Virus record (IMG/VR): IMGVR_UViG_3300036856_000037
DNA: 64,000 bases
Origin: a virus
Lineage: Duplodnaviria > Heunggongvirae > Uroviricota > Caudoviricetes
Direction: 5' to 3' (one strand)
A program made the position numbers and the translations under genes. How positions within the stretch are numbered: the stretch's first letter is position 1; the number at the start of each line of letters is the position of its first letter. Below are positions 50,206 through 51,270 of the stretch, in pieces. A model generated the notes under the pieces. It searched no databases. It was not told the origin of the DNA and saw nothing but the letters and a program-made list of their open reading frames with translations.

Positions 50206-51270
50206 CTAGGGGAACTTGGGCACCACCGGACCCACTGGCCTGCCGTAATGCATCTCATCGGGGTCGCTGTAGCCAGGTCGTTTTGCGCGCGCGGCACCCA
50301 TGACGGGGACGGCGGGGATGACAGGTAAGCCCACGGGGATGGGCCGCTGTTTCCCCTGGTGCTCCAGCGGCAACGGCGTCACCCGTGGTCGCTCAGGCGC
50401 AGGCCATGACGGCGGGACAGAGAGCCTGCCCAGATTGTTGGCCGAACCGGCGCTGGCCGTGGGAGCCAGCGGCCTGGTGGCAGGCAGTGGAGTAGGCGCT
50501 GGCGCAGGAGCAGGAGCAGGAGCAGGAGGCGGCACAATCACCTCTGTTGACCCGTGACTACTGTTGGCCACATTTCCCAGCGCAAGGAGCGACAGCCATG
50601 ATGCCGCATCAGCGGCAGGGTCAAAGTTGATGTAGCCCGCAGACGCGATGGCCAGCCCCAGGGGAGAGGTAAAGAACCCCGCGAGATTCTGCAATGGACC
50701 CGCACCTGGCGTGTAATTCGGGTCCAGGGTGGAGATGATGCTGGAGAGTGGATTGGTGGCAGCGGGCGGGTCGGCGGGCGGGTCCAGTGTGGCGGCAGCT
50801 TGTGAACTGGCTTGGTAGGTCGTCATCGCACTGGTGTCTTGAGCCCACATTTCGGCATACAGCGCCTCCGTCGCGCCGATAGCCGGAGTGTTCTGGCCCA
50901 GCAGGTTGGTCGCCACCAAGGTGGCGAGTAACGAACGATTGACAAAAACCATTTCCGGCGGAACGGTCGCGGCATACGCCGCCTCAAATGCCCCGGCGGC
51001 ACCGCGCGCCTGGGCTGCCGTAGTCTCTGCCATCGTGGCGGTGGCCATCAGCCAACTGGCGAACCGCGTCCCGGCACTGCGCATGGCCAGCGCTGATGGC
51101 CCACTCCATGGGATGGCGGTGACCTGCGACAAATACCCCTGCGCCGCGTGTGTCAACTCCTGGGAAATTGACTCCCACCCGGCTGCCGCCTCCTGCAAAG
51201 AACTGGCGCCGGGCCCGGTGTACATCCGCACCGAATTGACCTCGGGCGGAAGGAGTCCAAAGTCAATCAT
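50206..51270 (-). CDS. PPE-family protein (second copy)
   Basis: MIDFGLLPPEVNSVRMYTGPGASSL...; (PAPA)n linker. Confidence 0.75.
   Translation of the reverse strand: MIDFGLLPPEVNSVRMYTGPGASSLQEAAAGWESISQELTHAAQGYLSQVTAIPWSGPSALAMRSAGTRFASWLMATATMAETTAAQARGAAGAFEAAYAATVPPEMVFVNRSLLATLVATNLLGQNTPAIGATEALYAEMWAQDTSAMTTYQASSQAAATLDPPADPPAATNPLSSIISTLDPNYTPGAGPLQNLAGFFTSPLGLAIASAGYINFDPAADAASWLSLLALGNVANSSHGSTEVIVPPPAPAPAPAPAPTPLPATRPLAPTASAGSANNLGRLSVPPSWPAPERPRVTPLPLEHQGKQRPIPVGLPVIPAVPVMGAARAKRPGYSDPDEMHYGRPVGPVVPKFP

Follow-up and report, generated by a model that had tools for sequence, protein, structure and literature searches.

The PE and PPE families are usually regarded as inventions of mycobacteria, carried on the chromosome (and on ESX plasmids), and the functions of their members are largely open. 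PPE proteins share a conserved N-terminal domain of about 180 aa with Pro-Pro-Glu near residues 7-10, and their PE partners carry YxxxD/E. PPE-SVP proteins are secreted via ESX-5 (PMC7140425), the PPE substrates of this system are located at the outer membrane (PMC10597459), and two reports on PPE51 assign it a role in nutrient uptake and membrane integrity (PMC8826857, PMC12607722). A phage-borne PPE is already known in print: for phiMAV_1, a prophage of M. avium 104, Fan et al. 2014 (PMC3986857) gave the integrase as MAV_0779, lysis genes as MAV_0786 and MAV_0787 and tail genes as MAV_0795 onward, and remarked in one sentence that MAV_0790 is a PPE protein. A prophage survey from the Hatfull group (PMC10654092) described cassettes of phage-encoded ESX-secreted (polymorphic) toxins (PEST) in M. 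abscessus prophages and likened their secretion domains to PE/PPE heterodimers; the passages of that survey in which PE/PPE are mentioned do not report bona fide phage PPE genes. Here, we analysed a PPE gene without adjoining PE gene, hereafter the lone PPE, located at 50206..51270 on the minus strand of a 64,000-nucleotide stretch of a Caudoviricetes virus (IMG/VR record IMGVR_UViG_3300036856_000037), this whole stretch being referred to as the window. It is an intact PPE-SVP gene with the motifs and modelled fold of its family, genes of this kind recur in similar placements across phages, and together they form a maintained lineage of lone phage PPEs, so far seen only in phages of slow-growing Mycobacterium. 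Our preferred reading, with a probability of roughly 0.55, is that of a phage-carried PPE-SVP acting in the infected or lysogenic cell and not in the virion.

The reading frame runs unbroken from ATG to TAG and encodes 354 aa starting with MIDFGLLPPEVNSVRMYTGPGASSL. An earlier note, made by a model from the letters of this DNA, had described the same intact minus-strand open reading frame (ORF) with this start, and was also right about the full PPE N-domain, to which we applied a profile search, and about the (PA)n linker that follows it. The gene and its parts are:

50206..51270, minus strand: lone PPE gene of the PPE-SVP type, 354 aa (translation; PF00823 and PF12484; PPE15 as top PDB match with phmmer)
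50788..51264, minus strand: N-terminal helical PPE domain, residues 3-161 (AlphaFold2, Foldseek and alignments)
51241..51249, minus strand: PPE motif, residues 8-10 (read in the translation)
51100..51108, minus strand: WxG motif W55-S-G57, between helices 2 and 3 (alignments)
50554..50751, minus strand: middle hydrophobic helical region, residues 174-239 (AlphaFold2 model; alignment)
50482..50532, minus strand: (PA)n proline/alanine linker, residues 247-263, PPPAPAPAPAPAPTPLP (translation)
50275..50460, minus strand: PPE-SVP C-terminal region, residues 271-332 (PF12484)
50404..50430, minus strand: GxxSVPxxW motif G281-R-L-S-V-P-P-S-W289 (translation)

The PPE profile of Pfam (PF00823) matches residues 3-161 over 162 of its 165 model positions (E=3.8e-53, 180 bits), which is far beyond chance. 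The PPE-SVP C-terminal region (PF12484) scores 28.1 bits against a gathering cut-off of 23 over residues 271-332, and a match to EspB_PPE stays below threshold; Pfam gave only these three, and no toxin domain. Neither PPE of the window is matched by an NCBIfam model. No structural match was obtained with PHROG or Pfam, the sole PHROG match being phrog_30407 ('unknown function', E=1.7e-4).

An AlphaFold2 model of the protein was built from a 56-sequence alignment. The predicted local distance difference test score (pLDDT) exceeds 90 across residues 1-165, and the first Foldseek match in the PDB was PPE15 (5xfs_B; target-normalised TM-score 0.89, root-mean-square deviation (rmsd) 2.0, 52% identity), followed by PPE41 and PPE4; the target-normalised TM-scores of 5xfs_B, 2g38_B and 4w4k_B lie at 0.87-0.89, with an rmsd of about 2 Å. 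PPE15 also headed the phmmer search of the PDB (5xfs_B, E=1.8e-44). The entry 5xfs is the structure of the PE8-PPE15-EspG5 complex, and PPE15 is an ESX-5 substrate. In the model, the lone PPE has the five-helix PPE fold seen in PPE41 and PPE15. Hydrophobic helices follow with moderate confidence (pLDDT 60-77) at residues 174-182, 192-201, 203-210 and 218-239, and the residues past 239, including the (PA)n linker, are predicted to be disordered. As modelled, the fold is thus that of a PPE helical bundle with a disordered tail, and not a typical tail-protein fold.

The motifs of the family are conserved together with the fold. W55 and G57 are invariant, and V285, P286 and W289 invariant or nearly so, in alignments of 17 and of 56 sequences. 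The helix-tip residues N122, G125, N127 and I131 are likewise invariant or nearly so among phage-borne and chromosomal homologues, and the helix-4/5 tip of the lone PPE, VATNLLGQNTPAI, is similar to that of PPE15, VATNVLGINTPAI. The middle region (residues 174-239) lines up with the 'SSGxPxD...LF' segment of other phage PPEs, and the phage copies in the 17-sequence alignment retain both the SVP region at the C-terminus and the terminal tail motif. Conservation of the WxG, tip and SVP motifs is our main argument that export, rather than incorporation into the virion, is the selected property; it fits continued selection for export, as judged from the alignments. With these secretion-related motifs kept and no structural homology, the lone PPE is probably not part of the virion. 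The earlier note had offered two ideas on function: the first, a protein secreted during infection, would fit the motifs, the SVP region and the PPE15 match, while the second, a virion-associated protein, found no positive support, the PHROG and Pfam searches having given no structural match.

Beyond the window, at least 15 distinct loci of phages or prophages were found to carry a lone PPE gene of about 335-370 aa (context look-ups and a scan of IMG/VR; our locus labels start with L), usually on the late-gene strand. Proteins that match the lone PPE over its full length (37-45% identity) nearly always have about 340-380 aa; chromosomal PPE-SVPs (about 400-480 aa) match in the N-domain only, at 56-62% identity. 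A homology search with residues 155-354 alone returned no matches, Pro/Ala low-complexity words having probably swamped the candidates. Among cultured phages, a tblastn search of 50,697 INPHARED records with the whole lone PPE gave nothing at E<=1e-5, and with the N-domain at E<=1 the sole match was 'Mycobacterium phage Adler' (29% identity). This was rejected as a comparable phage PPE, since the match lies in a complete ESX locus and the record is flagged UNVERIFIED_ORG. That locus (L027, KF981876.1 14244-26681, 'Mycobacterium phage ADLER F1725') holds an EccC-like FtsK/SpoIIIE gene, a PE-like gene, a PPE gene, two Esx-like genes and EccD, and is more suggestive of a plasmid or integrative element than of a phage module.

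Exact look-ups of the prophage PPEs, annotated as 'PPE family protein', led to the M. avium complex (L008, L012), M. interjectum (L022) and M. malmoense (L013), and further ones to M. colombiense (L009), M. branderi (L005) and M. shigaense (L015, in an ambiguous context). All prophage hosts identified are slow-growing Mycobacterium. The cluster of the L012 PPE contains the M. avium 104 protein ABK69252.1, which we take to be MAV_0790, a link not checked directly. Crude gene calls had made the L012 PPE a frameshifted pseudogene; this was rejected, its translation being intact.

Three placements could be distinguished. In the first, tail genes are followed by PPE, phrog_19005, LysA and phrog_102 (probably LysB), as in L004, L017, L008/L010/L011, L012 and L022. 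In the second, the lysis cassette, the holin and a few small genes come first, and the PPE closes the late strand and abuts leftward genes, which include an integrase in L002/L003/L006, L020 and L028; the same order occurs in L007, L013 and L029, with no integrase seen in the stretch examined. In the third, the PPE lies among early or DNA-metabolism genes (L031, L009). The lysins are backed by PHROG matches in L002, L004, L007, L013 and L014. The gap between the PPE and its upstream gene is 0-15 bp in six loci, and the phage PPEs of related loci are often translationally coupled to their neighbours.

Two further gene families were observed around these genes. Proteins with the PF08237 'PE-PPE' hydrolase domain are encoded beside or near the lone PPE at L020:2838-3707, L031:8054-8866 and L029:1-342, the domain in L029 belonging to a 798-aa protein whose gene precedes the lysis genes. 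DUF732 genes, of a secreted mycobacterial family, lie between PPE and integrase in temperate phage contigs (L002:12886-13921, L028:10339-10647) and are likely lysogeny-side accessory genes.

In the window, the lone PPE stands at the end of the tail-gene block, as the earlier note had it, 60 bp after the last tail gene. Its surroundings are:

51271..51330, minus strand: spacer of 60 bp from the last tail gene to the PPE start (GGGGAG directly 5' of the ATG)
51331..51771, minus strand: last tail gene of the block, 146 aa, directly upstream of the PPE (phrog_11690 'tail protein', E=1.5e-11)
52159..52809, minus strand: minor tail protein, 216 aa (phrog_553, phrog_2106)
54105..54440, minus strand: minor-tail gene (minor-tail PHROGs)
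56066..62068, minus strand: minor tail protein, 2000 aa ('minor tail protein with lysin activity' PHROG, beta-lactamase domain, phrog_102 segment)
62068..63525, minus strand: minor-tail gene (minor-tail PHROGs)
49877..50209, plus strand: ORF of 110 aa, convergent, with a 4-bp overlap between its end and the PPE stop (no family match)
88..888, minus strand: phrog_19005 protein ('unknown function') with a papain-like signature (E=2.7e-32)

Homologues of the 216-aa minor tail protein precede the PPE in L004 (7877-8395) and L017 (7998-8621), at 40-42% identity by tblastn, and homologues of a 163-aa protein (55173..55664) precede it likewise in the same two loci; the window, L004 and L017 therefore have a partial gene order in common. 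The phrog_19005 gene, the usual downstream neighbour of the PPE, sits 50 kb off in the window, and the lone PPE therefore stays with the tail block.

These neighbours bear on a role in the virion, in which the protein would be one of the late structural proteins, located at the end of the tail, and would help the phage to bind or cross the mycomembrane on infection. It is the last gene of the minor-tail block and on the same strand, it remains beside the tail genes even with phrog_19005, its usual neighbour near the lysis cassette, so far away, and in relatives only 0-15 bp part the PPE from tail genes. We nevertheless hold such a role to be very unlikely, as PHROG returned phrog_30407 and nothing structural, the all-helical PPE secretion domain needs a PE partner, the motifs that serve ESX export (WxG, tip and SVP) are kept, and several phages have their PPE after the holin or among early genes, away from tail genes.

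As to the phrog_19005 family itself, its alignment contains invariant GDCAIAG and GGH motifs, by which it looks like a papain-like Cys-His peptidase. Members were found at L004:11075-11869, L017:11114-11908, L008:11088-11975, L002:5063-6013 and L014:4521-5339, and the usual site in mycobacterial prophages is between the PPE (or a PLDc_2 gene) and LysA. No PPE lies near the phrog_19005 relatives of Mycolicibacterium brisbanense, Microbacterium, Leifsonia and a Solirubrobacteraceae metagenome-assembled genome. The scan of genome contigs with this family yielded 5 loci only, which sufficed to establish that relatives outside Mycobacterium have no PPE but are too few for statistics.

Past the convergent ORF come genes for two helix-turn-helix proteins and for HNH and ParB-like proteins, a queuosine/dpdA-like cluster, and genes for an exonuclease, for RecET and for a replication initiator. 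Since phage genes lie on both sides, the lone PPE is inside the phage genome and not at a prophage border. A host chromosomal gene just beyond a prophage end could also close a block ahead of convergent genes, as the lone PPE does; this explanation is effectively refuted, phage DNA flanking the gene on both sides and the same arrangement being found in an independent 57-kb assembly. The exact protein occurs in only two public contigs, i.e. the JGI contig (116,665 bp) and this 57-kb Logan assembly, in which the gene order is the same. The search for direct or inverted repeats flanking the lone PPE gave none suggesting a transposon or cassette, the matches being short and at chance level. One weak terminator-like hairpin lies near the gene, and chance would yield as much; no sigma-70-like promoter was found in the 60-bp spacer with a scan that is weak for mycobacteria. 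The DNA of the window shows no likeness to known phages except a 108-bp QueE match (cultured phage CRB2), and no tRNA genes were found in it.

The words 'second' and 'lone' of the earlier note proved apt, since another PPE gene exists in the window and the only PE gene adjoins that one:

9929..10228, plus strand: only PE gene of the window, 99 aa, with YxxxE (YGASE) near the C-terminus (PF00934, E=2.8e-17)
10232..11455, plus strand: first PPE gene, 407 aa, paired with the PE gene directly upstream (PF00823, E=2.5e-59)

A comparison of the two copies, which the earlier note had put forward, gave 39% identity over 254 aa; at so low an identity, they are not recent duplicates. The PE gene lies about 40 kb from the lone PPE and is a candidate partner in trans, the pairing being suggested by family membership. 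The PE and 407-aa PPE genes belong to a run at 9929..13883 (plus strand) that continues with genes for a 117-aa hydrophobic protein and for proteins of 240 aa and 362 aa without Pfam or PHROG match; it may be a small island of type VII effectors carried by the phage.

The other phage loci also have their PPE alone. Within flanks of about 10 kb (shorter at contig ends), a PE gene was found only in L018, which resembles a chromosomal ESX locus. One could imagine from this a secretion decoy, i.e. a PPE that stays cytoplasmic or jams the machine, titrating EspG5/ESX-5 and stopping export of host PE/PPE proteins: nearly all phage loci lack an adjoining cognate PE, yet the chaperone-binding tip is kept. 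A pure decoy would not need the SVP C-terminal region and the terminal tail motif, which are conserved, and we find this explanation rather improbable.

Sequence evolution gives a further view of the gene. The N-domain of the lone PPE is 59-62% identical to chromosomal PPE-SVPs and 43-57% to other phage PPEs. A neighbour-joining tree of N-domains places the short PPEs from phage contexts in long-branched groups apart from the large cluster of chromosomal PPE-SVPs (398-480 aa), and the lone PPE groups with those of L013, L009, L017, L004, L014, L022, L008 and L012. Two M. avium complex prophages, otherwise 99.5-99.8% identical, have swapped a patch of divergent alleles (L008:10440-11980 versus L012:10440-11980) that covers the PPE from about codon 147 onward (its C-terminal two-thirds) and the downstream peptidase-like gene, in-frame indels included. 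With dS 0.63, dN 0.27 and dN/dS 0.43, the patch is a recombined old allele under purifying selection, i.e. a local mosaic. Where the M. avium complex alleles vary, positive or diversifying selection is not demonstrable at this dN/dS, and the value between such divergent alleles shows that the PPE gene is maintained. The synonymous codon usage of the lone PPE ranks fourth most atypical among the 62 genes of the window (z=-2.0), as expected for an accessory gene.

The same data allow the gene to be weighed as a passenger captured from a host chromosome and without role in the phage life cycle. Its N-domain is slightly closer to chromosomal PPE-SVPs than to phage PPEs and its codon usage is atypical, both of which would suit a capture. 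Such an origin without function is unlikely, as the frame is intact, short lone PPEs hold like positions in many divergent phages, old alleles differ with a dN/dS of only 0.43, phage PPEs form tree groups of their own, and flanking repeats or a transposon signature are missing.

We therefore return to a PPE-SVP that acts in the infected or lysogenic cell, and propose the following course by analogy with what is known of the family. The gene would be transcribed with or just after the minor-tail genes. The N-terminal PPE domain would pair with a PE protein, either the phage's own (9929..10228) or one of the host, as orphan chromosomal PPE-SVPs do, and the protein would be chaperoned by EspG5 and exported by ESX-5. 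Through its hydrophobic middle and its SVP C-terminal region, the protein would then come to lie in or on the mycomembrane, where surface or permeability would be altered to the phage's benefit. PE pairing, EspG5 binding, ESX-5 export, the mycomembrane location and the effect on the cell would all follow from family knowledge.

On the nature of this effect we are more tentative. A late-infection role, i.e. release or a block of re-adsorption and superinfection, is possible and is favoured by the tight packing with late tail and lysis genes. Lysogenic conversion, the protein acting as a channel or surface factor, has a little less than that chance in our estimate, and is favoured by the integrase that adjoins the PPE in several temperate phages. 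More speculative is the broad proposal that phages of slow growers keep a PPE-SVP lineage of their own and hijack ESX-5 late in infection to put a phage protein into the mycomembrane, as a new kind of factor for outer-membrane lysis or egress or as a receptor-masking factor of superinfection exclusion; we would call it doubtful.

Several points weigh against action in the cell after export. The presence of ESX-5 in the host is an assumption. No PE gene adjoins the lone PPE, and pairing in trans is putative. In relatives, the PPE is often 0-15 bp from late tail or lysis genes; such close packing makes a classic moron, expressed from a promoter of its own, less likely, and a role in structure or lysis would be compatible with it as well. 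At the lone PPE, no promoter or terminator signal was detected with a scan that is weak for mycobacteria. Finally, the neighbour-joining tree is without bootstrap support and may suffer from long-branch attraction.

Some other genes of the window deserve mention. The 2000-aa product of 56066..62068 (minus strand) combines a phrog_102 segment (residues 335-479), a PF00144 beta-lactamase fold (residues 543-836) and several minor-tail modules. In the related loci, phrog_102 is the mark of LysB-like lysins. The 2000-aa protein may be carried by the virion and degrade the cell envelope. A 7-deazaguanine/queuosine gene set at 42654..45895 (minus strand) comprises GTP cyclohydrolase I, a QueE-like radical SAM protein, a PTPS (QueD-like) protein and a queuine tRNA-ribosyltransferase/DpdA-like protein (phrog_7068), and suggests DNA modification by the phage. 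A 109-aa protein (42201..42530, minus strand) is assigned to PF26761 (Acb5) by the annotation precomputed for the Logan contig (L001:18789-19070), and the gene may serve anti-defence. Among the early genes, 32914..33510 (minus strand) encodes a 198-aa putative secreted peptidoglycan-active protein with a signal-peptide-like N-terminus and an Rpf-like transglycosylase match (phrog_29757). Finally, the 590-aa protein of 18636..20408 (minus strand) matches phrog_850 'RNA-binding protein' (E=1.3e-84).

The PPE family, and a lone PPE in a phage, are thus known. What appears to be new is the recurrence of such genes, their placement, their restriction to phages of slow growers, and the fact that a large environmental phage has one in addition to a PE-PPE pair. 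We see the lone PPE as a worthwhile and testable lead that is only moderately new, and its mechanism as a proposal. A phage lineage of short PPE-SVPs would provide a compact natural test case for a single PPE-SVP at the mycomembrane, and would suggest that phages of slow growers, including culturable prophages of the M. avium complex, exploit ESX-5. It would bear on phage therapy of non-tuberculous mycobacteria, through surface changes and exclusion, and on the movement of PPE genes between species. Should the hijacking of ESX-5 be true, this would be the first phage function dependent on type VII secretion with a bona fide PPE, and phages would be a vehicle of PE/PPE gene flow.

Compared with known systems, the lone PPE has the N-terminal PPE domain, the WxG motif, the GxxSVPxxW motif and PF12484 in common with chromosomal PPE-SVPs such as M. 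tuberculosis PPE15 (Rv1039c) and PPE51. It differs from them in being phage-encoded, in its shorter length (354 versus about 400-480 aa) and in having no adjoining PE; the chromosomal proteins end in a ...PRxPxGG tail, of which it lacks the last residues. In coliphages, lom of lambda, cor of phi80 and N15 and llp of T5 are genes for non-structural envelope proteins beside the host-recognition tail genes, and change the surface of infected cells or lysogens by adhesion or receptor blocking. The likeness would be an analogy of position and logic only: the families are unrelated, export goes by Sec/Lol versus presumed type VII secretion, and the envelopes are different.

PEST systems, according to PMC10654092, are likewise phage-encoded ESX-domain proteins that form PE/PPE-like helical heterodimers. 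Their genes are described there as accessory and located at the prophage edge near integration functions, and as joining WXG100-type N-domains to C-terminal toxins, with genes for immunity and for a WXG100 partner. Unlike them, the lone PPE has a true PF00823 domain and an SVP tail, and neither a toxin domain nor an adjoining WXG100 or immunity gene. PEST hosts are the fast-growing M. abscessus and M. chelonae; those of the phage PPEs are slow growers. MAV_0790 of phiMAV_1 is likewise a lone PPE in a mycobacterial prophage, between tail genes and lysis genes. Seen through the L012 PPE, it has the same short PPE-SVP-like architecture, with an N-domain only about 55-57% identical to that of the lone PPE. 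In phiMAV_1 the PPE is followed by a phrog_19005 peptidase-like gene and then the lysis cassette, whereas in the window convergent regulators follow it.

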